From: Leptolyngbyaceae cyanobacterium | GTDB lineage: Bacteria > Cyanobacteriota > Cyanobacteriia > Phormidesmidales > Phormidesmidaceae | Reading direction: 5' to 3' | Assembly (NCBI GenBank): GCA_965263355.1 | Contig: CBDHHL010000035.1 | Coordinates: forward strand, 1 to 64,000 | Length of the DNA stretch: 64,000 nucleotides | Shown: positions 2,637-64,000 of the stretch, piece by piece | How positions within the stretch are numbered: position 1 is the stretch's first letter | Layout: the number at the start of each line of letters is the position of its first letter | Translations under genes and position numbers: made by a program | Notes under the pieces: model-generated | What the model saw: the letters and a program-made list of their open reading frames with translations, nothing else | Database searches by the model: none | What the model was told of the DNA's origin: nothing

Positions 2637-3440
2637 TTATTCTCCCACTAACTTTTGACGCTCACCTTTAGCACCCTGAAAATTCTGATCCAGGACACTC
2701 AATATCTCTCTTGGTAATTTCTTGGTGACGTGAGCAGCGGGTTCATCAATCCACTGGTTCTCACCAATACCCAAAGACTTAATCCACTCTCGACACTGCT
2801 TATTAGCTTTGGTGCCTCTGCCGAATCCATAACGCTTAGACAACTCAGTGATGGTTATCCCGTCAAATTTCTCAGAACGGCCATAGGCATCCACGATTAC
2901 TGTGACCGGCTTCTCTACTTCAATAACCGCATCATGCTTACCAAAGGTGATAGCAGGCAACGCAGGGTTGATGTTGGCCAGCATTTGAGAAGCTGAGGCT
3001 AAACGCTCCCTAGCCTGAAGCAGAGCTAGCTCTATCTTCATTTTTTCTAGCTCAGCATTTTGAGCAGGAATGATAGTCTCTGCTTCTCTCGTCTTGGCTG
3101 CGAAATAGGCTTGAGCTGCAGCGATCTCAGGCTTGCGTGGATCACCATTCATCGCAGTCAGGTAGGCACCGTAACGAGTCAGCCTGAAGTCATCTATTTT
3201 TCTTACCGCTCCTTTGCCTGTAGCTATCATTTTCGAGGAGCCTCGAAAATGATCAAACGCTTCATTGCCAGAGTTTTCACAGGCCAACGTTGCTTTTTCA
3301 ATCACCTTGCCAAAACGGTCCCATTTTGGGTATCCCAAAGGAGCGGCTAGCTCTCTAGCACTCCAATACTCAACGCCGTGACTGTCTACTTGCCGCAGCT
3401 GATCGAATAAGGCGTTTGTTTTTGCTATATCACTCATCAA
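2637..3440 (-). CDS. Phage antirepressor-like protein, BRO/DinD-like N-terminal domain
   Basis: FDQLRQVD..GVEYWSARELAAPLGY.KWDRF..VIEKA and LTRYGAYL.AMNGDPRKPEIAAAQAYFA motifs. Confidence 0.8.
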   Translation of the reverse strand: MMSDIAKTNALFDQLRQVDSHGVEYWSARELAAPLGYPKWDRFGKVIEKATLACENSGNEAFDHFRGSSKMIATGKGAVRKIDDFRLTRYGAYLTAMNGDPRKPEIAAAQAYFAAKTREAETIIPAQNAELEKMKIELALLQARERLASASQMLANINPALPAITFGKHDAVIEVEKPVTVIVDAYGRSEKFDGITITELSKRYGFGRGTKANKQCREWIKSLGIGENQWIDEPAAHVTKKLPREILSVLDQNFQGAKGERQKLVGE

Positions 3441-3918
3441 ATTTCACCCCGAACGAAACATCTAACGCCTTCTCAATGGCCTGCAAGTTTTCAATCGACA
3501 ACGTCCCCTTAAGAGTCTCTTTCTCAAGGTCATACCAATAGGTCCTACTAACGCCTACTTCGCCGCACAAAGCTTGCCTATGCGCGGGCGGGTTGGCATG
3601 AAAGCCGGGGTGACACTGCTTATTCAGAGGTGGCAATAGCTTTTTGATTAGCGCTCGCTCTAAGTGCTTTCTATTTTTGCTCGTTAACTCTTGAGCGCAC
3701 ATCCACTTGATAGCTGATGCCTTCCATTTCTTGAAGTGCAAATTATGAGAATGACTCAGAAAACGGAAAAACAGACTCTGGGTTTCACCAACGTACAAAA
3801 TCCCTTCGCAACTATCGAGCACAAAATAAATCGCTGAAACTCTGGGTAATTGACGCTTTTGCTCAAAGGAGATCGAGTTAATCATCAACGACCTCCCGCA
3901 CGATACTTTCGAACCCAA
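3430..3918 (-). CDS. GIY-YIG nuclease domain fused to a C-terminal XRE-type HTH
   Basis: AIYFV...LYVGET..L..R...H and LERALI...PPLN, then LCGEVGVSRTYWYDLE...LSIENLQAIEKAL. Confidence 0.7.
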   Translation of the reverse strand: MGSKVSCGRSLMINSISFEQKRQLPRVSAIYFVLDSCEGILYVGETQSLFFRFLSHSHNLHFKKWKASAIKWMCAQELTSKNRKHLERALIKKLLPPLNKQCHPGFHANPPAHRQALCGEVGVSRTYWYDLEKETLKGTLSIENLQAIEKALDVSFGVKFDE

Positions 3919-13294: not shown

Positions 13295-13339
13295 AAGTTA
13301 TAACTGAATCAGTTAAGGCAAGGAGCCGAAAGAAAGATG
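13275..13339 (+). promoter_or_regulatory. Promoter-operator-RBS cassette, copy 1
   Basis: TTGACA-18-TATAAC, palindromes ATAAC(C)TCTAGA(A)GTTAT and TAACTGA-A-TCAGTTA, RBS AGGAG. 47 bp identical to 14342-14388. Confidence 0.85.
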
Positions 13340-13660
13340 ACAGCATTAGCCATTCTGAACACCACCATCGCTACCACTGATGGTGTATTCGAGGTCAAAA
13401 CTATTGACCTTGACACTGCCAAGGCCCTAGTCACGTCTAACTCACTAGACAGCGCAGTAGGGCATCAGTCCACTGCTGACGTGATGTCTACTCTCTTAGG
13501 GGTAGACATCCCCATGAATCGTCAAATGTTCGCTCAGAAGCCAGGTCAACAGGCCTTAGTTTTCAAGCTCAACGGACGTCCTCAGGAGGGGCAAATTATG
13601 AGCGCCGAGGAGATTGAAGAGATGGGTTACAGCTTTAAGCTGATGACCAGAACCGCATAA
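13337..13660 (+). CDS. acrIII-1: DUF1874 / STIV B116 / YddF family, AcrIII-1-type cA4 ring nuclease (anti-type III CRISPR)
   Basis: 107 aa with family motifs ILN, SAVGHQSTA (catalytic His), MNR, G..ALVFKLNGR..EG....EE. Confidence 0.85.
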   Translation: MTALAILNTTIATTDGVFEVKTIDLDTAKALVTSNSLDSAVGHQSTADVMSTLLGVDIPMNRQMFAQKPGQQALVFKLNGRPQEGQIMSAEEIEEMGYSFKLMTRTA

Positions 13661-38753: not shown

Positions 38754-41699
38754 ATGACAACCACAGCGCTCGCCCCAAAACGAAGAACTGACAACCGCCC
38801 TTGCGAAGGCAGCTGGAGTGGAACATTGGGTAGCTGCGTGAGATCGAAGGCTCGCAAAAAAGGCCCCAATCTACGGGACGAAGCAACCCGAAAAAAGGCA
38901 ATCGTCGACTTTATTGATAGTCATTGGGACGAGACGACCGCCCGTGAATGGATTCAGGATACTAACGAAGGCAGGGGAAAGCCTAAAACCATCCTAAAAT
39001 GGCTAGACGAAGACTTTCAGGCAACAAAAGAACTAGAGGATTTAGTCAAGAAAGATCCAAGCATGGCTGAAAGTGCTATGGGCGCTGATATAGCAGAAAT
39101 CCAGCAAGAGATTAAAGACAGAAAAGAAAACATCGAATTATATAGAAAATACATCAAGTTAGCGCCTCACCTAACTGATGATGACATCGACGAATTCGCT
39201 TACAAAGCTGAGGATGAAGACGAAAAATACAGAAAAAAGCCTCGCACTGATGATGCTACTCCTGTCAAGCGCATTTTGAAATGGCAAGGCTTTGAGATTG
39301 GGATACAGTACCTGCCCTTTGAGAAACGTCATGGCCGTGTTTTACCTGCTGCTTATGGTCACTTCCGTCGTACCCGTGGAGCTGATGGGATGGCTGTTGA
39401 TGTGTACGTGGGGACCAACCTGGCTAGCCCTCTGGTGTTCGTAGTGGATCAGGTGATCGATGGGGCATTTGATGAGGAAAAGATGATTATCGGCGTTAAT
39501 GATGCAGCTGAAGCACGCATGATTTATGGACAGGCCATGCCTAAAGAGTTTTTTGGTGGGATGCGTGAAATCCCATTGGCTGAGCTAGAAGAATATCGAG
39601 TGCCCATGCTGACTAAATCTGACGCTAAACCCCGACGACGCAAGAAAGGCTGTAACGATGACTGTGAGTGCGAACCATGCCAAAAGGCTAGGAAGGATGC
39701 GTTGGATGCGATGTTAAAGGATCACATAGATGTGTTGACAATGAAACTAGACGCCAAAACCGGCACGCCCTGCAATAACCAACGGGGGTGGGTAGGGACT
39801 AAGCCAGGGTGTAAGCGCGCTAAGCCTGGGACAGCCACCAGGGTGCGCAGAATTGAGCGTAAACGGATGGGCAAGAACCCCGAGCCTCCGAAAGCTCGTA
39901 CCATCACTGCTGCCGAGAAAGCAGAGCGCAGGGGACAGCTAAGCCTATTCCCAGCCGACAAGCCTCAGCCAGTACGCAGCCAGAAGAAAAAGGCACCGAG
40001 AGGGAAAGACCTGGCATTTGAATCGGCCTACAAAAAAATACCCAAGTCAGAGGAAGGCGGGGAATCATTGGACCCGAACGCGCCTCAATCATTTGGGGAC
40101 TGGGTGGCAGAGGGTAAAAATGCTCAGCATGAACGGATAAGAAATAACCCTGATGACCGCAGTAAGTGGTATCGAAACGCTGACGATTTCTTTATCTCAG
40201 AACTAAAAGGTTACGACACCAATAAAAACGGGAAAGTCACCAAGGTAGAGATTTTTGGTTTAAAGCCGATGCCTCTGAAGTCGGCATACCGGTTGGCCAC
40301 AGAAAAGTACAACCAAAAGTACGGCAGCTCCCAGAAGAACGCAGCTAAGCGGATGAGCCAGGGTGGAGCCACGCTGAAGATAAAAGAACCTCCTGCAGAA
40401 ATAATCGAAGCTGCCAAAAAGAAAGCTGCTGCGGGGGAACGCAAAAACCTAACCAACGAATTCAACCAAAAGATTAAGGCGGTTCGCGCTATCGAAGACC
40501 CCGACGAGCGAGCCCGTCAAGCTCGTGAGTTAGCCATGGAGGCAGAAAAACTAGAGTCTCGCTGGGGTCGCGACCAGGGGTTAAGCAGCATCCGCAAAAA
40601 GGCCGCTAACTTATCCCGTGAGATGTTCCGGCGCACCGAAGCCCCACAGCCTAAGCGGGCCAATACGCCTGTTCGGCTAAGCAAAAAACAGGGCGAATCA
40701 ACTCTATTCCGTGGGCCTAATGGCAGCTACTTTAGTATCGACTCTCGTGAATGGGACGCAGCGGTCGACGCACTAGCTAAGGTTGATGCGAAGAAAGCCG
40801 GGACACCTTGTAATGCCCAGAGGGGCTGGGTGGGGATGAAAAAGCCCGAGGGGAAAGGCTGTAAACGAGCAAAAAAAGGCACTGCAAAACGGGTAAAAGA
40901 AGTTAGGGGGAAGCGTACAAGCAAGAAAAATGCTCAGCCAAAGAAGATCGCTCAGCCGACCGACGTATTGACTCCAGAAATTAAAAAGCGACTTCTTGCG
41001 CACAAAAACAGGCCAATGGTGTCGCTAGAAGATATTTCAGCGAAAAGGAAAGAAGGTGAATCTATCGCCGCTGAAGTCAGAAGTGCGCTAAAAGGGAAAG
41101 CCGACCCTGGGCTTTGGCTAAAGAATGGGTTATTTGAAATTGCAGACATAAAAGACTTTGGAGTTAAAGACGAAGATATTAGCTCAACTGAGTCCGTCGA
41201 TAAGTTCTACAAAAATCTTGCTCGACAGATCCATCCAGACAGGGGTGGGAGTGATGAGCAAATGGCTAACTTGAATGACCTAAGGCGTCAGCTGAAGTCT
41301 ATTTCCAGACTCAGCTCCGAGACTAAGAAGCCACAGCCAAAACGGAAAGCTAAGGCCAAGAAAAAACGCAGTGATGCACAAGGCACCCTTATCTCAACCC
41401 TCCCTCGCCGCAATGGCAAGGTGAAATATCGTGGCCAGTGGTGGACGATTGATAAGGACGTTCCTGCTACTCAGAAGGGCAAAAAGCGTCAGGTTCTTGC
41501 CAAGAAAGGGGATCGGGTGATGCTCGTAGCCTTTGGGGATGACAGTTATCGACATAATTACAGCCCTGAAGCCAAAGCAAATTACCTGACCCGATCTGCA
41601 GGCATCCGAGATAAGGATGGAAACCTGACCAAGAATGACCCATGGAGTCCTAATTATTGGTCTCGTAAAGTGTTATGGCCTAAGGGGGACGCTGCATGA
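38754..41699 (+). CDS. Polyvalent virion-region protein: pyrophosphatase-like, J-domain-like and C-terminal conserved domains
   Basis: YGHFRRT.GADG.AVDVYVG...FDEEK..IG; YKNLARQIHPDRGGS.EQMA.LN; V.FGD...Y..RSAGI.......NDP.SPNYWSR..LW. Confidence 0.7.
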   Translation: MTTTALAPKRRTDNRPCEGSWSGTLGSCVRSKARKKGPNLRDEATRKKAIVDFIDSHWDETTAREWIQDTNEGRGKPKTILKWLDEDFQATKELEDLVKKDPSMAESAMGADIAEIQQEIKDRKENIELYRKYIKLAPHLTDDDIDEFAYKAEDEDEKYRKKPRTDDATPVKRILKWQGFEIGIQYLPFEKRHGRVLPAAYGHFRRTRGADGMAVDVYVGTNLASPLVFVVDQVIDGAFDEEKMIIGVNDAAEARMIYGQAMPKEFFGGMREIPLAELEEYRVPMLTKSDAKPRRRKKGCNDDCECEPCQKARKDALDAMLKDHIDVLTMKLDAKTGTPCNNQRGWVGTKPGCKRAKPGTATRVRRIERKRMGKNPEPPKARTITAAEKAERRGQLSLFPADKPQPVRSQKKKAPRGKDLAFESAYKKIPKSEEGGESLDPNAPQSFGDWVAEGKNAQHERIRNNPDDRSKWYRNADDFFISELKGYDTNKNGKVTKVEIFGLKPMPLKSAYRLATEKYNQKYGSSQKNAAKRMSQGGATLKIKEPPAEIIEAAKKKAAAGERKNLTNEFNQKIKAVRAIEDPDERARQARELAMEAEKLESRWGRDQGLSSIRKKAANLSREMFRRTEAPQPKRANTPVRLSKKQGESTLFRGPNGSYFSIDSREWDAAVDALAKVDAKKAGTPCNAQRGWVGMKKPEGKGCKRAKKGTAKRVKEVRGKRTSKKNAQPKKIAQPTDVLTPEIKKRLLAHKNRPMVSLEDISAKRKEGESIAAEVRSALKGKADPGLWLKNGLFEIADIKDFGVKDEDISSTESVDKFYKNLARQIHPDRGGSDEQMANLNDLRRQLKSISRLSSETKKPQPKRKAKAKKKRSDAQGTLISTLPRRNGKVKYRGQWWTIDKDVPATQKGKKRQVLAKKGDRVMLVAFGDDSYRHNYSPEAKANYLTRSAGIRDKDGNLTKNDPWSPNYWSRKVLWPKGDAA

Positions 41700-56425: not shown

Positions 56426-56607
56426 TGTTCTTGTCAGGACTCAATGTGAATTGCACTACATTGAGTGATTCAAATGATTTCAAAACAATATGAACACAAA
56501 GTGCAGCCAAGAACAAATTGAACGGATACGACTGGGCCTTGCTCATGGACTATTAGCGCTCCCACGCGGGCCGATTGGTGGAAGCAGGATTAGGTATTTT
56601 TGATGAT

Positions 56608-57720
56608 ATGGAATTAAATCAAGTTATTCAAGGCGATTGCTTGGAAGTGATGAACGGCATCCCTGATAGCAGCATTGATCTAATAGCAACTGACCCGCCT
56701 TTTTTTAAGGTAAAAGGGGGCGGTTCTAAAGGCAAATTCGAATGGTGGGATCGCGCCTGGGATAATTCAGCAGAATTCTTGAGATGGATTGACCAGCTAG
56801 CCGCACAATGGCAACGCATCTTAAAGCCTAATGGCAGCCTGTATTGTTTCGCGAGCACAAAAATGTCAGCACGAGTTGAGGCGTTGTTGAGTGATCGTTT
56901 TAATGTGCTGAACAATATTCGATGGCGAAAGGAACAAGGAAGACATAAAGCATCATGCAAAGAAATTCTTAGAGGCTATTTCCCTGCATCGGAATCAATT
57001 ATCTTTTGTGAACATTACGGCGCAGATAACGCAGCTAAAGGCGAAGCAGGTTATCAGGCAAAGTGTGATGAGTTAAGAGGATTTGTTTTTGAACCGTTGC
57101 GAGCATATCTAGATGGAGAGAGGACCAAAGCCAAAATTGCACATAGACGAATAATACATATTCTTGGGATGCGGGGGCATGACTCGCATTTTTTTAGCCC
57201 TATTCAATGGAAGTTACCTCTAGAAGACCAATACAAAACCCTCCAAGACTCATTCCCCGGTTACTTTCAACGCCCATACGAAGAACTACGTCAGCAATAC
57301 GAAGAACTACGTCAGCAATACGAAGAACTGCGTAGACCGTTTATCGTATCGTCAGACGTACCCTACACCGATATATGGGACTTTCCGACAGTGCAAGGCT
57401 ACCCAGGTAAGCATCCATGCGAGAAGCCATTGGCCATGATGGCGCACATCATAAACGCTAGCTCTAAGCCTAATTCAGTAGTTCTAGATTGCTTTTGCGG
57501 TTCCGGCAATACTCTAGTAGCGGCCAAAAAGCATGGACGACATTTTATCGGGATTGATATTGATCCTCATTGGGCAGATGTAGCCCGTGGCAAAGTCGGC
57601 AAAGAACAAAGCTTTGTATCACAGCAGGCTAGATTAGACTGGCTAAAACAACAGACCGCAACGACTGAGGAAGCCCCCAAAAAGCAGCAGCTAAACTTAT
57701 TGGATTTACTTGCAAGCTAG
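56608..57720 (+). CDS. DNA N4-cytosine/N6-adenine methyltransferase (beta class)
   Basis: GDCLE, TDPPF, HPCEKP, VLDCFCGSG. Confidence 0.9.
   Translation: MELNQVIQGDCLEVMNGIPDSSIDLIATDPPFFKVKGGGSKGKFEWWDRAWDNSAEFLRWIDQLAAQWQRILKPNGSLYCFASTKMSARVEALLSDRFNVLNNIRWRKEQGRHKASCKEILRGYFPASESIIFCEHYGADNAAKGEAGYQAKCDELRGFVFEPLRAYLDGERTKAKIAHRRIIHILGMRGHDSHFFSPIQWKLPLEDQYKTLQDSFPGYFQRPYEELRQQYEELRQQYEELRRPFIVSSDVPYTDIWDFPTVQGYPGKHPCEKPLAMMAHIINASSKPNSVVLDCFCGSGNTLVAAKKHGRHFIGIDIDPHWADVARGKVGKEQSFVSQQARLDWLKQQTATTEEAPKKQQLNLLDLLAS
57277..57333 (+). repeat. 21-bp tandem repeat (YEELRQQ, about 2.7 copies) in the methyltransferase
   Basis: TACGAAGAACTACGTCAGCAA twice, then a partial copy. Confidence 0.9.
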
Positions 57721-57882: not shown

Positions 57883-58971
57883 ATGATGCATAGAATCCCA
57901 GAGCTACTTAAGCGGAACAGCCTGATAGGGGCTGCTATTGTTGGGCCAGACGGAAAGTTCTGGGATGTAAATGAGACTCTGTGTGAAATACTGGGTTATC
58001 AACGAGAAACGTTGCTGCGCCTAACGTTCCAGCAGATCAGCCATCCTGAAGATCTAACGCCTCAGGTCAACCCATTCCGCAGCGTAATCAATGGAGAACT
58101 TAAATCTTTCACGCTGAAAAAGCGCTACAAGCATGGACAAACAGCAGAATGGATCTCTTGCACGTTGCACTGCGAAGGATTCCATTCTGAGTCTGGAGAA
58201 TTCCTTTATTTCTTTTCCCAAGTCAGTAAGCTTGGCGACAAAGAGCTGACAGAGGTTGAAACACAAAGGCTTTCAGAAATAAAATACGCAATCAACAACA
58301 ACGGATTTGCCCTGCATTATCAGCCGATAGTTGACCTGAAAACCGATGAGACCGTTGGTTATGAGGCGTTGTCACGATGGGCAAAAGACAATGAATTAAT
58401 CTTCCCAGGGGATTTCTTGCCTTTACTGAGAAAGGCAAACAGTGAACACTTACTGTGCTACTGGGTAATTGAGCAAACCCAGGCAGATTCAATCAAGATT
58501 GGCCAGTGGATCAGCTTTAATATCAGCCCATTCACTCTAGCTAGAGCAGATTGGCACGATCAAAAGCTGCCTGTTAGAGGGCATATGGAGATATTGGAGA
58601 CTGAGGCTGTTTCTGAGGAGATTCAGAGCCGGATTCAGTCAGCTAGGCGGACAGGCGTAAAGATCGCCCTGGACGATTTTGGCACCGGATACTGCAGCTA
58701 CGATAGATTGCTGAAAGGCCAAGTTGACCTAGTAAAGCTCGATAGATCTATTATTAGTGGCCTGCCTGCTCGCGAATCCAGAGTAATGGTTGACGCAATT
58801 GTGGCGCTATCGCAAAAACTCAGCATCAAAGTTATCGCTGAAGGCGTGGAAACCCAGCAACAGGCCGACATGTTGAAAGCAATCGGCTGTGACATGGCGC
58901 AGGGCTATTTGTTCGGTCGGCCTGCGCCACTACCCGCGATCACTCGCTCTTCGTCGGGGGCCATTCACTAG
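57883..58971 (+). CDS. PAS-EAL protein (c-di-GMP phosphodiesterase)
   Basis: PAS (VN...C..LGY....L....HPED); EAL motifs YQPIV, EAL, NIS, EILE, DDFGTGY, KLD, AEGVE, QGYLFGRP. Confidence 0.9.
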   Translation: MMHRIPELLKRNSLIGAAIVGPDGKFWDVNETLCEILGYQRETLLRLTFQQISHPEDLTPQVNPFRSVINGELKSFTLKKRYKHGQTAEWISCTLHCEGFHSESGEFLYFFSQVSKLGDKELTEVETQRLSEIKYAINNNGFALHYQPIVDLKTDETVGYEALSRWAKDNELIFPGDFLPLLRKANSEHLLCYWVIEQTQADSIKIGQWISFNISPFTLARADWHDQKLPVRGHMEILETEAVSEEIQSRIQSARRTGVKIALDDFGTGYCSYDRLLKGQVDLVKLDRSIISGLPARESRVMVDAIVALSQKLSIKVIAEGVETQQQADMLKAIGCDMAQGYLFGRPAPLPAITRSSSGAIH

Positions 58972-59498: not shown

Positions 59499-60518
59499 GT
59501 GAGTATTCTATTCCTGAAAATGAACTCGCCAAAACTTGAAATAACGGAACCCGGATACCAGCCAGCTTTGATTTCCGTAAAGGATCGCTGGGGAGAATAC
59601 AATATCCTGGGAATTGGCAGAAAAGATAATGATTATATGCCAATGGTCGTTTTCCGCGACCCACCACAGGCATTGTCTCGATCCCAAGTCACTGTAACAG
59701 GAGTGGAAGGCGCTGACGGACTAGTGCTGTGGGTTCGAGACGGAGGACCGAAATTTCAGGGAGAAATTAATACTCCGATAAAATGGGGCGTTATCAACGG
59801 CCAGCCAGAGATCGGCGCTGATAACGCGTGGAAGAAAAGCGCTTATGGGACCTGGATAAACCAGGAGGCACTGTCCCCCTACGGCTGGACTGTATTTAGA
59901 GTTAGCGATCTCTTAACGTTTGGCAGAGAACTAAAATATCCAATGCTGGCTGGTTATTCAATTCGCCACACCATTGAAGAAACGGGCGGCACTGGACACA
60001 ATGCCGGGACCGTTTCATACTCAGCCGCCGAAGTGTGGCGACAGGAATCAAGGCGGGCCAAAACCGAAGGCACTATGTTGCTAACAGTGCCTAGCAGCAA
60101 GAAAAGCTTGGCTGTGATCCAAGAGATTGACTCCACTGCAGAATTAATCCTAGGAGCGTCGCCAGGGGAATTACAAGACGCAGAAGGGTCGATTAGCCTG
60201 CAGGACCAATTTTTGTTTGAGCAAGAAATAAAATTAAATGAAATGGTCTCTGAAGCCATGGTTTATGACCGCTCGTTTGTGGGGAATTTCACCACGATCT
60301 CAGGTCAAGAAATTTCGCTAAACCTAAGGCGGCGCATCATCAATAATGAGCCGCCGGTTTTATTCGCATGGCTCGCATTAAACGTCAATGCCACCGAGGC
60401 AAGCGCGCCGCAAAGTGACTGGAAAGCTGAAGCTGTTAAGTTCGCCAACCAACACCCATGGATCGCGGCATTGGTTGGAATCGCTATAGCAATTATCTTT
60501 TCCCTTCTATCTAAATGA
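59499..60518 (+). CDS. Hypothetical protein with C-terminal TM helix
   Basis: WIAALVGIAIAIIFSLL tail. Confidence 0.6.
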   Translation: MSILFLKMNSPKLEITEPGYQPALISVKDRWGEYNILGIGRKDNDYMPMVVFRDPPQALSRSQVTVTGVEGADGLVLWVRDGGPKFQGEINTPIKWGVINGQPEIGADNAWKKSAYGTWINQEALSPYGWTVFRVSDLLTFGRELKYPMLAGYSIRHTIEETGGTGHNAGTVSYSAAEVWRQESRRAKTEGTMLLTVPSSKKSLAVIQEIDSTAELILGASPGELQDAEGSISLQDQFLFEQEIKLNEMVSEAMVYDRSFVGNFTTISGQEISLNLRRRIINNEPPVLFAWLALNVNATEASAPQSDWKAEAVKFANQHPWIAALVGIAIAIIFSLLSK

Positions 60519-60529
60519 TGGCAAAAACC

Positions 60530-60811: not shown

Positions 60812-61140
60812 GTTTCAGCCCCTTGAAACGGATTGAAGCCTTGGCAGCGTATAGCACCATGCCCCGCAAATCAGGGAACGTTACAGTTTCAGTCCCTTGG
60901 TAGGGGTTGAAGCCTTGGCAGCTATCTGCATCATTACTTACTGCATTACTGCGATGATGTTTCAGTCCCTTGGTAGGGGTTGAAGCTTTGGCAGCTCAGG
61001 ACCGCATAGACCAGCTCAAGCCAATAACAGGTTTCAGTCCCTTGGTAGGGATTAAAGCTTTGGCAGCTTGGCTCATGGCTAATAGTTCGTTTCCACCAGG
61101 TGCGTTTCAGTCCCTTGGTAGGGATTAAAGCTTTGGCAGC
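60812..61140 (-). CRISPR. CRISPR mini-array: five 37-bp repeats, four spacers (37/36/35/36 bp)
   Basis: GTTTCAGTCCCTTGGTAGGG(G/A)TT(G/A)AAGC(C/T)TTGGCAGC at 60812 (degenerate), 60886, 60959, 61031 and 61104. The degenerate left repeat and minus-strand 3' GAAAC end imply leftward transcription. Confidence 0.97.
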
Positions 61141-61199
61141 GTAAACAGCTGCATCCCTTTAGCCGCAAGGCTTTTATGAGCGATTCTGGCAAAGCTCAG

Positions 61200-61465
61200 A
61201 AAATGGCAATTTTGCCAAAGCTTTAATCCCTGTTTTTCAAGGTTCTTCTTTTGGCCTCGCTTAGCTTTGCCAAAAAAAGTTGAGACTGTTCGCCATAGAT
61301 CCGGCGAATCTATAAGGGCCTTACGGACTCCTTTTGCTCCTATCTTGCCTTTCGGCTGGTGTTTATCGGTTTCCCGACAAAAGATACCCATAGCCCCCTA
61401 GAGAACCTTAGCGCTGAAGCCATCCAACAACGTTTCCGCTGCCTTGTCGCCCAAACTGCGATGTC
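61200..61465 (-). ncRNA. Putative tracrRNA in the array leader
   Basis: 19-nt perfect anti-repeat at 61213-61231; candidate minus-strand promoter TTGGCG-17-TAATAT (61497-61469). Boundaries approximate. Confidence 0.65.
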
Positions 61466-61513
61466 CTTATATTAGCGTGTTATATTTTGTACGCCAAGTA
61501 TTTTTTAATATAA

Positions 61514-61714
61514 ATGGGAAAAGAGAATAGAGAAGGCAGGATTTACGCGCGCATCAAGCAAAGCCGTAAACAAAAGCTAGAGCAGTATTGTAGACTTTGG
61601 GATATATCGATAGCAGACCTATTGGAACGCTTTATTGATATGCTGCCAGAGCTGCCGCAAAACGACGTACAAAATAATGAAGACGATCAAGGTAAAAGTC
61701 CAGCCGACTCCTGA
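61514..61714 (+). CDS. Ribbon-helix-helix regulator overlapping the effector start
   Basis: RIYARIKQSRKQKLEQYC....ISIADLLERFIDMLP. Confidence 0.75.
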   Translation: MGKENREGRIYARIKQSRKQKLEQYCRLWDISIADLLERFIDMLPELPQNDVQNNEDDQGKSPADS

Positions 61715-63398
61715 AACACTGATTAAATACGAGAAAATTTGCAGAGAGCTTGAATGGTTGTGGAACTATGTGAGGGCCGTAGCCTTACATAATCACTGCC
61801 TTGAATGGTATGCGTGGGCCGAGGGGAAAGGCGCTGACTTGTCAGGCTGCATTAGAACGCCGTTACGCTTTTCAAAGAGTGGCGGTTGGAATGGAGCGAC
61901 TTGTCAGATTGCTAAAGGGGGTCCGTATTTTAAGAAGTCAGATAAAGCTCCTTTAATCCACTATGACGATGGCAAAACGAAACAAGGCTATGAATTAGTA
62001 GCTGGGGATAAGCCATATGAGCCAATAAAGCCAGAGCGTCATAGATATCGCGAAGTCTCTTATTCAAGTAAAGGCAACTCAATGACCCGTTCCAGTAAAA
62101 GCACCTCAATAACCCGCGAGCTAAAAGGAAAAGGTTGGGGCCTAGACAATATGGCGTTACTAAATGCGTCACGAAGTTCTCAGGGTCTTGATGAATTAAC
62201 TTGCCATAGCGATTTTGTTGGAGGGCTACTAGCTGACTTTGAAGTTGCTTGGAAGGCTTATTTAGACGGGAAACTGCCCGCCAGAAAGCAGCCAAAGTAT
62301 AAGGACGGCAAGCAGTGTAAAATTAGCACGTTGAACAATAATCAAAAAGCCATCCCGTTCAAAAAAGGACAATTCGACGGTCAAGGCTTAGTTTTAGAAC
62401 CGTGCGATCGCAGCTATTCAAAAAGACTCGAAGGCTATGTAATAAAGACTTACAAACTGATATTAAAACCGAGTGGCTTCTATCTATGCCTAACTACTCA
62501 AAGTGAAGCGGAAGAAGAAAATAGATTAGAACTTAAACGACAAAAAAGAGTTTTAACCGCTATCAAGAAAAAAGTTATTGATGGCATTAAAGGGGAAAAG
62601 GAGCAAGCCAAGGCGTTAGCTAACAGTGAAGACTATCAAACGGCATTAGCCAAGAAAAAGTCAATAGAAAATGAGCTGCCATACTTGCTAATAGAAGACT
62701 CAAAATGCGCTAAACGAACCGGGCATATGGCGGGCATTGACCCTGGCGTTAAGGCAATTGTAGCGACTGACGAAGGTCATTTATTTAATCCTAACGAAAG
62801 CAGACAACGAATACACAATCATATTGAAAAGCTGCAATCCAAGCTTGATATTATGATTGAGAAAAATGATAAGCGGCTAGGACAAAAATGGAAGGGAGGG
62901 CAGCGGCGAGCCTCCAATAACGAGCAAAAACTTAGGGGCAAAATATCCAGACTTCATGAGCGAGCCGTTAATAGTTCAAATGCTTTCAATCATAAATTAT
63001 CAACCAGGTTAGCCAGAACTTATGATGTCATTGCTTGGGAGGCTACGGCGTTAACTAACATGGGGAGGCAGACAACGCCTAAATTAGCTGAAGATGGAAG
63101 TTATTACGAGCAAAACGGCAGAACAGCTAAGGCAGGATTGAACAGATCCTTGAAAATAGCCTGTATGGGCGACCTTAGAACTAAAACAAAATCTAAATTA
63201 GAGGAAGCCGGGAAATTATACATAGAGACGGAGGCTAGATACTCATCACAACGCTGTCATTGTTGCGGGGGAAAAGGCATCAGGCCAGCCCAAGATACGT
63301 TTATTTGCGTAAATGAGAGCTGTAGCCTATTTGAACAGAAGCAAAATGCAGATGTTAACGCCGCAAGGAACCACAAGAAAAGAGGAATTACAGAATAA
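61677..63398 (+). CDS. cas12: TnpB-derived type V CRISPR effector (~573 aa; Cas12f/V-U2 C2c8-like, subtype uncertain)
   Basis: MKTIKVKVQPT start; RuvC-I GIDPG, RuvC-II IAWEA, Zn finger SSQRCHCCG...CVNESC, RuvC-III NADVNAARN; adjacent array. Confidence 0.85.
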   Translation: MKTIKVKVQPTPETLIKYEKICRELEWLWNYVRAVALHNHCLEWYAWAEGKGADLSGCIRTPLRFSKSGGWNGATCQIAKGGPYFKKSDKAPLIHYDDGKTKQGYELVAGDKPYEPIKPERHRYREVSYSSKGNSMTRSSKSTSITRELKGKGWGLDNMALLNASRSSQGLDELTCHSDFVGGLLADFEVAWKAYLDGKLPARKQPKYKDGKQCKISTLNNNQKAIPFKKGQFDGQGLVLEPCDRSYSKRLEGYVIKTYKLILKPSGFYLCLTTQSEAEEENRLELKRQKRVLTAIKKKVIDGIKGEKEQAKALANSEDYQTALAKKKSIENELPYLLIEDSKCAKRTGHMAGIDPGVKAIVATDEGHLFNPNESRQRIHNHIEKLQSKLDIMIEKNDKRLGQKWKGGQRRASNNEQKLRGKISRLHERAVNSSNAFNHKLSTRLARTYDVIAWEATALTNMGRQTTPKLAEDGSYYEQNGRTAKAGLNRSLKIACMGDLRTKTKSKLEEAGKLYIETEARYSSQRCHCCGGKGIRPAQDTFICVNESCSLFEQKQNADVNAARNHKKRGITE

Positions 63399-63601
63399 TG
63401 CAAGCCTCAATCACCATCTCCATACGCTCAAAAACCCTGGCTAAAGCTCAACAGCTAAACATCCCGGTTGAAGTGATTTTGAGCGAGGAGCTATCAAGGG
63501 TGGCCGACAGGCTCCTGCTGCCTTTGATTCAGGAATACGGAATGAACTGCGATAGAACCGATTACGTCCCAAGCTGGATAGAGCAATCGGCCCAGCCATA
63601 A
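63398..63601 (+). CDS. Small RHH-like protein coupled to the effector stop
   Basis: TAATG overlap; ITISIRSKTLAKAQQLNIPVEVILSEEL. Confidence 0.5.
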   Translation: MQASITISIRSKTLAKAQQLNIPVEVILSEELSRVADRLLLPLIQEYGMNCDRTDYVPSWIEQSAQP

Positions 63602-63773: not shown

Positions 63774-64000
63774 TTGACCGCAAACAGTAGTTTCGACCCA
63801 TCTCAGGCCATTGGGTATTATCGTGTTTCGACGCAACGGCAGGAGCAAGAGGGCCATAGTCCCGAGCGTTATTTAGAGCGTCTTGAAGCGGTCGGCATTG
63901 CTCCTACTGATATTTATTCTGATGCTGAATCCGGCGGCATATTCGAACGCAAGGATTTACAAAAAGCATTAGCCAGGTTGAAAAATCCTAATAAGAAATA
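63774..64000 (+). CDS. Serine recombinase/integrase, N-terminal catalytic domain (truncated by the window edge)
   Basis: Manual translation from TTG: ...AIGYYRVSTQRQEQEGHS...IYSDAESGGIFERKDLQKAL. Confidence 0.85.
   Translation, partial: MTANSSFDPSQAIGYYRVSTQRQEQEGHSPERYLERLEAVGIAPTDIYSDAESGGIFERKDLQKALARLKNPNKK

Follow-up and report, generated by a model that had tools for sequence, protein, structure and literature searches.

Which nuclease is encoded between positions 60,812 and 63,601 of a 64,000-nt stretch of Leptolyngbyaceae cyanobacterium DNA (assembly GCA_965263355.1, contig CBDHHL010000035.1), and what does it take from its host? This stretch, referred to below as the window, comprises 64 kb of an 82,254-bp contig, about 18 kb of which lie outside the analysis. 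An earlier note, made from the letters alone, had described here a compact CRISPR system of type V, borne by a phage and descended from TnpB/C2c8-like ancestors. This was borne out, as were its five-repeat array, three open reading frames (ORFs), D/E/D residues and zinc finger, which were re-derived from the sequence. The effector belongs to Cas12p (type V-P, 'Cas12 hacker') by sequence, fold, tree and RNA. The system type has already been published (bioRxiv 10.1101/2025.01.20.633832; Wang et al. 2026 Nat Microbiol, cited in PMC13728456; PDB 9JFS, 9JG3), and the window copy represents a branch that is shorter and rearranged. The note's placement among the poorly characterised V-U groups therefore did not hold. 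Statements cited from the literature here and below refer to excerpts of the sources. Taken as a whole, the locus is probably a phage-borne Cas12p cassette that borrows host type I-D adaptation and encodes a thioredoxin-activated, GTN-directed nuclease of double-stranded DNA acting against related phages. The cassette comprises the following parts, including a trans-activating CRISPR RNA (tracrRNA) and a ribbon-helix-helix (RHH) regulator:

60812..61140, minus strand: CRISPR mini-array with 5 repeats of 37 nt and 4 spacers of 35–37 nt
61141..61273, minus strand: shortened leader of 133 nt with type I-D-like motifs, from alignment to an I-D leader
61213..61231, minus strand: 19-nt inverted copy of repeat positions 3–21 within the leader, from a sequence match
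61277..61462, minus strand: Cas12p-type tracrRNA of about 186 nt, from a covariance model
61282..61288, minus strand: tracrRNA anti-repeat, 7 bp with repeat positions 27–33 (duplex −10.9 kcal/mol)
61469..61497, minus strand: probable tracrRNA promoter with −10 TAATAT at 61474–61469 and a weak −35, read by eye
61514..61714, plus strand: 66-aa RHH-like regulator that shares 38 nt with the beginning of the effector ORF
61677..63398, plus strand: Cas12p (V-P) effector of the short branch, 573 aa, with its start ATG where homologues start

Published Cas12p is a phage-borne family of 500–700 aa with a 185-nt tracrRNA and a 37-nt repeat (bioRxiv 10.1101/2025.01.20.633832). The window protein shares with it the phage origin (terminase, portal, head protease and major capsid matches were found among the window proteins), the size and the fold. 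A phmmer search of the PDB returned Cas12p 9JFS with an E value of 1e-106 (next match 9e-10). The AlphaFold model, with a predicted local distance difference test (pLDDT) of 85.8 and a predicted template modelling (TM) score of 0.73, matched 9JG3 in Foldseek with an E value of 4.6e-45 and a TM score of 0.77 (next 3.5e-12). The domain order is WED-REC-TB-PI-RuvC-ZnF, where TB is the thioredoxin-binding domain. RuvC residues D355/E455/D559 align with D378/E478/D582 of Cas12p, and this triad is intact in all 13 close relatives; the zinc-finger cysteines C527/C530/C544/C549 are at least 90% conserved. Residues D197/N261/Q262 of Cas12p, which read the protospacer-adjacent motif (PAM), are also kept. 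In a tree of the RuvC region built from 65 chosen rows, the window protein falls into a 29-row clade (Shimodaira–Hasegawa-like approximate likelihood ratio support 95) with P0020, the cluster representative of Cas12p-1 that was used as its proxy, apart from the other C2c8-like proteins and TnpB. As compared to Cas12p-1, the protein is 37% identical (BLASTP against the Cas12p construct, 637 columns), lacks a REC insert of about 50 aa (8 residues versus 60–63 in Cas12p-1-like rows) and has no C-terminal tail. Strong matches (E ≤5e-85), most of them spanning nearly the whole protein, made up 39 of the 50 hits of the protein search, with more among 50%-identity representatives. At least 14 effector sequences form two clusters, and the triad is intact in the 14 that were aligned. 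The short-branch homologue P0023, on a 246-kb contig, has all three catalytic positions altered and no zinc finger; it is possibly an inactivated, repurposed Cas12p.

Single-sequence locus scans were empty, and scans with the alignment were not. A conserved RNA lies between gene and array across family loci. A covariance model built from 18 relatives, with the window left out, matched 61462–61277 (42 bits, E 1.2e-7), the only strong match in 64 kb. Two-sided changes occur in 13 of the 17 consensus pairs, and the covariation score exceeded all 500 shuffles and all slid controls, in tests that are inflated by relatedness of the sequences. In the published pseudoknot, crRNA (CRISPR RNA) positions −1 to −4 pair with tracrRNA 7G–10U (bioRxiv 10.1101/2025.01.20.633832). 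The corresponding G7–U10 loop of the window RNA (61456–61453, numbered from 61462 as in that paper) is able to pair with the final four bases of the repeat, so that the AAAC:GUUU pseudoknot and the 37-nt repeat of Cas12p are both present at the sequence level; in locus L068, loop and repeat end co-vary (GUUC/GAAC). The 9 nt past the last hairpin match the own repeat better than other repeats (7.2 versus 5.9 of 9 pairs in 15 loci; 0 of 20,000 permutations), with a cognate mean that is lowered by the misplaced anchor of L094, a row that was retained. A U7 tract at 61278–61272 then follows the tracrRNA. Relatives carry TTGACA/TAATAT with a spacing equal to that of the probable promoter at 61469–61497, which was not called in a promoter scan. 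The window RNA differs from that of Cas12p-1 by an insertion of about 59 nt in stem 3, a smaller form of which occurs in L004 of the same branch, and by the arrangement of the locus: tracrRNA and array lie upstream and divergent, with the RHH gene in between. Among 42 other loci, the RNA model matched only L001, L002, and L009; it missed the family loci L092, L098, L019, and L032. Rfam searches gave chance-level matches only.

Further RNA genes of this type were seen elsewhere. Second tracrRNA copies lie kilobases from the effector in five loci (L005:998; L009:1405–1529, minus strand; L010:5443; L011:5003; L072:9084), and those in L005 and L009 have their own arrays; a single effector may serve two guide cassettes. 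The cyanophages CrV-01T (MH636380) and Cr-LKS4 (OQ625504) encode a Cas12p homologue annotated as 'transposase', with no array within 4 kb of it and two tracrRNA-like genes each:

L001:2798–2960 and 3371–3520; L002:3009–3170 and 3371–3520: tracrRNA-like genes of cultured Cylindrospermopsis phages (CrV-01T, Cr-LKS4)
L027:3376–3520: tracrRNA-like gene on a metagenome contig

One of the cyanophage genes ends with a small hairpin and GGAAC, resembling a fused repeat end, and is a possible natural single guide. Among phages, no clear target emerged for the candidate guides of these RNAs without an array. The two phage-host pairs would permit native tests.

Since the most degenerate repeat copy lies at 60812, the array is read on the minus strand; in this sense its drifting repeats, spaced by 72–74 nt, end in GAAAC. 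An array of at least three repeats lies within 600 bp of the effector gene in 27 of the 43 full-length family loci, a redundant set drawn from 49 examined loci in which some contigs were counted twice and from which six C2c8-like or RuvC-only loci were set aside. Ten of the remaining family loci are cut by a contig end, two have partial arrays and four none; among RuvC-only loci, any repeat of at least three copies was found in 5 of 115. Loci L006, L007, and L018 (from 7930, 7930, and 6930) have two back-to-back arrays with different 37-nt repeats behind cas12p.

As the earlier note had stated, cas1, cas2, and cas4 were not seen in the window: Cas1, Cas2, Cas4, and TnpA had no Pfam match in 137 window ORFs (all 136 of at least 70 aa and one of 67 aa). 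Among plasmid arrays, the nearest one with a similar repeat is that of a type I-D system equipped with cas4, cas1d, and cas2, and the motifs of its leader stand at −193, −154, −141, and −51. The window leader has TTGGCAAA at −133, AGAACC at −106, and GCCAGA at −51, where the true I-D leader has GCCAAA. The alignment score of the two leaders, 76.5, was reached in 2 of 1000 shuffles; in a separate run, the best of 500 shuffles scored 80, above the real value. The leaders of L008, L012, L023, L091, and L094, with motifs at about −189, −151, −139, and −51, gave 0 of 1000 shuffles each, and that of L089 gave 1 of 1000. Such motifs increase I-D spacer uptake (PMC6607411), I-D Cas4 selects GTN (PMC5896167), which is also the PAM of Cas12p (bioRxiv 10.1101/2025.01.20.633832), and borrowing of I-D adaptation was proposed for Cas12k (bioRxiv 10.1101/2021.02.06.429022). 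Together, the leader motifs, the GTN selection and the Cas12k precedent suggest that the window array may use host type I-D adaptation, and the note's proposal of dependence on host Cas1-Cas2 is judged right, as probable.

The anti-repeat RNA proposed in the same note was a 19-nt match that proved real (rough chance of about 1e-6) and lies in the leader, about 40 nt beyond the U tract and directly after the AGAACC motif. Being outside the tracrRNA core, it is not the effector-bound anti-repeat; that role would fall to the tracrRNA at 61462–61277. It pairs with repeat positions 3–21, which are unused by the tracrRNA, and this helix forms in the folded leader-repeat precursor. Relatives have a weaker inverted copy in the same place that slightly tracks their own repeat (11.4 versus 10.2 of 19 pairs, window excluded; 23 of 20,000 permutations). 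By analogy with Cas12k, whose tracrRNA and array form a single precursor (PMC9938897), the copy is possibly a processing helix of a joint precursor; alternatively, or in addition, it could act as a DNA-level leader element in integration.

Characterised Cas12p is activated by TrxA through the TB domain with C127, and loss of basic TB.b residues nearly abolished Cas12p-1 cleavage (bioRxiv 10.1101/2025.01.20.633832). The counterpart of C127 in the window effector is C76, in a column where 31 of the 32 aligned homologues have Cys. The Cas12p residues W44/Y45/W47, nearly invariant among these homologues, and L107/I111/L115/C127/I129 are kept. Eight of 14 pocket residues, C76 included, are identical and six are altered or absent. 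A complex model of effector residues 1–275 with E. coli TrxA scored 0.86 (best of three controls 0.04), a mark that 116 of 157 solved pairs attained, as did 2 of 215 mismatched ones, with C76 beside C33/C36, contact agreement between runs of at least 95% and partner pLDDT of at least 91. As a like complex has already been solved (9JFS), the model may reflect memory and demonstrates likeness, not binding. The need of characterised Cas12p for host thioredoxin means that the nuclease, contrary to the note's claim, is probably not self-contained, and it lowers the claim of a candidate new compact editor.

The TB region of the window effector has an extra cysteine, C58; Cas12p-1 lacks a second TB cysteine, and 16 of the 32 aligned homologues have one. 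In cyanobacteria, thioredoxin is reduced by photosynthetic electron flow. It is conceivable, if unlikely, that the short branch is a redox-gated phage weapon, in which a C58–C76 disulfide would be a thioredoxin substrate, the nuclease would follow light and dark, and tracrRNA helices would replace lost protein surface. If true, host metabolism would switch a CRISPR effector, and the protein would be a switchable editor of 573 aa.

One natural protospacer came to light through sister strains. Sister alleles of the array carry other spacers, as seen in contigs of three runs from two samples of one study. A read joint 60132>61103 was present in all three runs, and contigs break at 60104 and 60126; together these imply a spacer of about 37 nt, beside the window's repeat, that matches the window gene at 59499–60518:

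60097..60133, minus strand: protospacer of a sister-array spacer, inside gene 59499–60518, with a GTG flank at 60136–60134 (the 37-nt length is inferred)

The 5' flank in the crRNA sense, GTG, fits the Cas12p PAM. Among 265 unique family spacers, five matched non-array DNA in the examined loci, with the flanks GTG, GTG, GTG, TTG, and ATA; four of the five fall in phage loci, at least two of these inside cas12p genes, and in two cases the spacer's own locus is matched as well, in a sample that is biased by loci centred on cas12p. The competing mobile elements named as targets in the note are judged a probable aim. Spacer 2 of L005 and spacer 4 of L023 target cas12p genes of related phages, and the former also matches its own gene with one mismatch, beside TTG. 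An exact viral scan with window spacer 1 alone and a protospacer-core scan gave 0 matches each. Window spacer 3 (60923–60958) is similar to a tandem motif that directly follows parA-copG on two small plasmids of Scytonema (E 4; the seed is mismatched), which is a possible target and a weak lead.

Cyanobacterial assemblies with homologues of the effector include those of Nostoc paludosum, Sphaerospermopsis kisseleviana, and Cuspidothrix; Scytonema has one by protein name, and the cultured cyanophages CrV-01T and Cr-LKS4 encode homologues as well (34% along the full length). Given these homologues and the I-D-like leader, a cyanobacterial host of the window phage is likely. When 401 cyanobacterial genomes were searched with a profile, the family turned up in the centre genome alone.

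Most likely, the locus encodes an inter-phage nuclease for which the host supplies both I-D Cas1-2-4 and thioredoxin. One divergent promoter region, presumably the 51 bp ahead of the 66-aa ORF, would drive RHH-cas12p rightward and a tracrRNA-leader-array precursor leftward. Host type I-D Cas1-Cas2-Cas4 would recognise the I-D-like leader and add GTN-flanked spacers. After processing, the last 11 nt or so of the repeat are predicted from sequence and covariation to pair with the tracrRNA through the GUUU/AAAC pseudoknot and the 7-bp duplex. Host thioredoxin, as shown for Cas12p-1 and modelled here, would dock on the TB domain around C76 and activate RuvC, and the complex would cut double-stranded DNA beside a 5'-GTN PAM, mostly that of related phages and perhaps of plasmids entering the cell.

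The RHH protein probably represses the promoters of the locus, by analogy with the Arc/RHH genes that adjoin some cas12k effectors (PMC9938897). The 66-aa ORF has an Atlas feature score of 0.93, and among its top three clusters is one called CopG regulator, 10% of whose members carry RHH_1. The protein is identical on four contigs; it had no Pfam match and no tblastn match in any examined locus.

Several observations weigh against this reading. The tree came from a quick search without bootstrap, in which the window's 11-row short subclade has a support of only 85, and the column of the PAM-reading residue K332 aligns ambiguously. Taken alone, the tracrRNA has a fold no more stable than that of shuffled sequences (z −1.5), and for L004, L005, and L093 the likeness to the I-D leader is not significant (112, 65, and 423 of 1000 shuffles). 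The four window spacers had no convincing target in the window, the examined loci, phages or five phage records, and only repeat matches in the 401 cyanobacterial genomes. The short side of the read joint has 29 letters at 85% likeness and comes from one study, and the array with the spacer for 60097–60133 could be that of the sister phage or of the host. By eye, an RHH-like ORF lies upstream in 1 of 25 relatives inspected (L021). No cyanophage was among the best eight listed matches of the terminase. Finally, L51 and W102 of the Cas12p pocket have no counterpart, F105A, I110C, V113T, and I172P are altered, and the net charge of TB.b is +1 in the window versus +6 in Cas12p-1. The loss of L51 and W102, F105A, I172P, and the weak charge, together with the short REC insert and the RNA insertions of the window and L004, would fit a short branch that no longer needs thioredoxin, or that binds DNA with little cutting, its tracrRNA helices replacing the REC helices and the basic loop. 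We regard this as rather improbable in view of the near-constant cysteine column, the nearly invariant W44/Y45/W47, a complex model that reaches its mark at that site, subject to the possible memory of 9JFS, and the intact triad in 13 of 13 close relatives. A decaying cassette that has lost spacer acquisition and action is very unlikely: a leader about 55 nt shorter than those of relatives with motif I altered to GCCAGA, only four spacers, drifting repeats and the lack of a target found speak for it, but sister strains differ in their spacers, one of which matches the window phage beside GTG, and the triad persists in the two effector clusters.

The protein family itself could be read in two other ways. 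An effector of the C2c8 (V-U2) type of cyanophage vB_AphaS-CL131, with a different RNA and unknown activity, is suggested by the best library profile, V_cas_c2c8, by the best PADLOC profile, Cas12u2, and by the nesting of the Cas12p clade among C2c8-like proteins in the RuvC tree. Both systems are minimal and without adaptation genes (PMC6293099), each on a phage that is a cyanophage in the case of CL131 and probably one in the window, and C2c8 is the nearest profile family within the same wider RuvC radiation. However, the effector scores 173 bits on that model against a cut-off of 350 (NF038192), in the RuvC half only, as compared with 189 for the Cas12p-1 proxy and 451 for CL131, and its full-length matches lie within the Cas12p clade only. 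The tracrRNA model found nothing in the CL131 locus, in L029–L031, L034, and L038, or beside other C2c8-like proteins or TnpBs. This reading is thus largely refuted, and the CL131 system, of another branch, is an earlier precedent in a cyanophage. The chance that the protein is a TnpB of the IS605/IS607 type that has a 3' omega-RNA of its own and lies by accident beside an orphan array is negligible. The effector does exceed the cut-offs of Pfam OrfB_IS605 and the guided_TnpB model, shares a RuvC-ZnF core with solved TnpBs (E about 1e-6), and small RHH genes often flank cyanobacterial tnpB. Against this stand scores of 53/425 and 43/350 bits on the TnpB family models (IS200/IS605 or IS607), a larger REC/TB region, the lack of a TnpA match, arrays beside most family members, and a sole RNA-model match that lies upstream, pairs with the repeat and is split into tracrRNA and crRNA; the outcome that the note had named as fatal to its proposal was looked at and not found. 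The tnpB of bioRxiv 10.64898/2026.02.14.705889 was unrelated, as judged from an excerpt.

Cas12p as assigned here also resembles Cas12k (V-K) in its probable GTN PAM, 37-nt repeats, proposed I-D adaptation, presumed tracrRNA-leader-array precursor and Arc/RHH regulators by some effectors (PMC9938897; bioRxiv 10.1101/2021.02.06.429022). Cas12k has an inactive RuvC and tnsB/tnsC/tniQ, whereas RuvC is intact here, Tn7-like genes had no Pfam matches among the window ORFs, and Foldseek E values to Cas12k are 1e-5 or worse. The regulator is co-oriented with the effector in the window and reversed in Cas12k.

With its 37% identity, this shorter branch is a test of which elements in the design for thioredoxin binding are indispensable. 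The cyanobacterial and cyanophage homologues bear on the hosts, which the excerpted Cas12p preprint (bioRxiv 10.1101/2025.01.20.633832) leaves open; the I-D-like leaders and shared GTN bear on spacer supply, which it does not address in that excerpt; and the GTG-flanked protospacer points to conflict between sister phages. These three points were not found in print, and the journal version on Cas12p may cover them.

Downstream of the effector lies one further small gene:

63398..63601, plus strand: 67-aa CcdA/CopG-like ORF (Atlas 0.86–0.87, lead only)

This ORF, which had been counted as part of the system, has no demonstrated link to it and probably belongs to the resident genes of the phage, next to the cassette. 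Loose contig ends connect the end of another gene to 60530 or to 63383–63405, which suggests that some strains lack the cassette; on its own, the 16-nt near-repeat seen at 60525 and 63402 is no better than chance. A serine recombinase begins at 63774, at the window end, and the phage is therefore probably temperate; the recombinase fragment had no plasmid match. The 339-aa gene at 59499–60518, the target of the sister spacer, encodes a hydrophobic C-terminus, is seemingly replaced in some strains and had no Pfam, PHROG, NCBIfam or PADLOC match. Other phage genes include a PAS-EAL protein (57883–58971), a probable cyclic di-GMP phosphodiesterase, adjoined by an N6/N4 DNA methylase (56575–57720) with a 43-nt near-repeat at both gene starts; a head-associated protein of 981 aa that contains an InPase domain (38754–41699); and a STIV B116-like protein (13337–13660).

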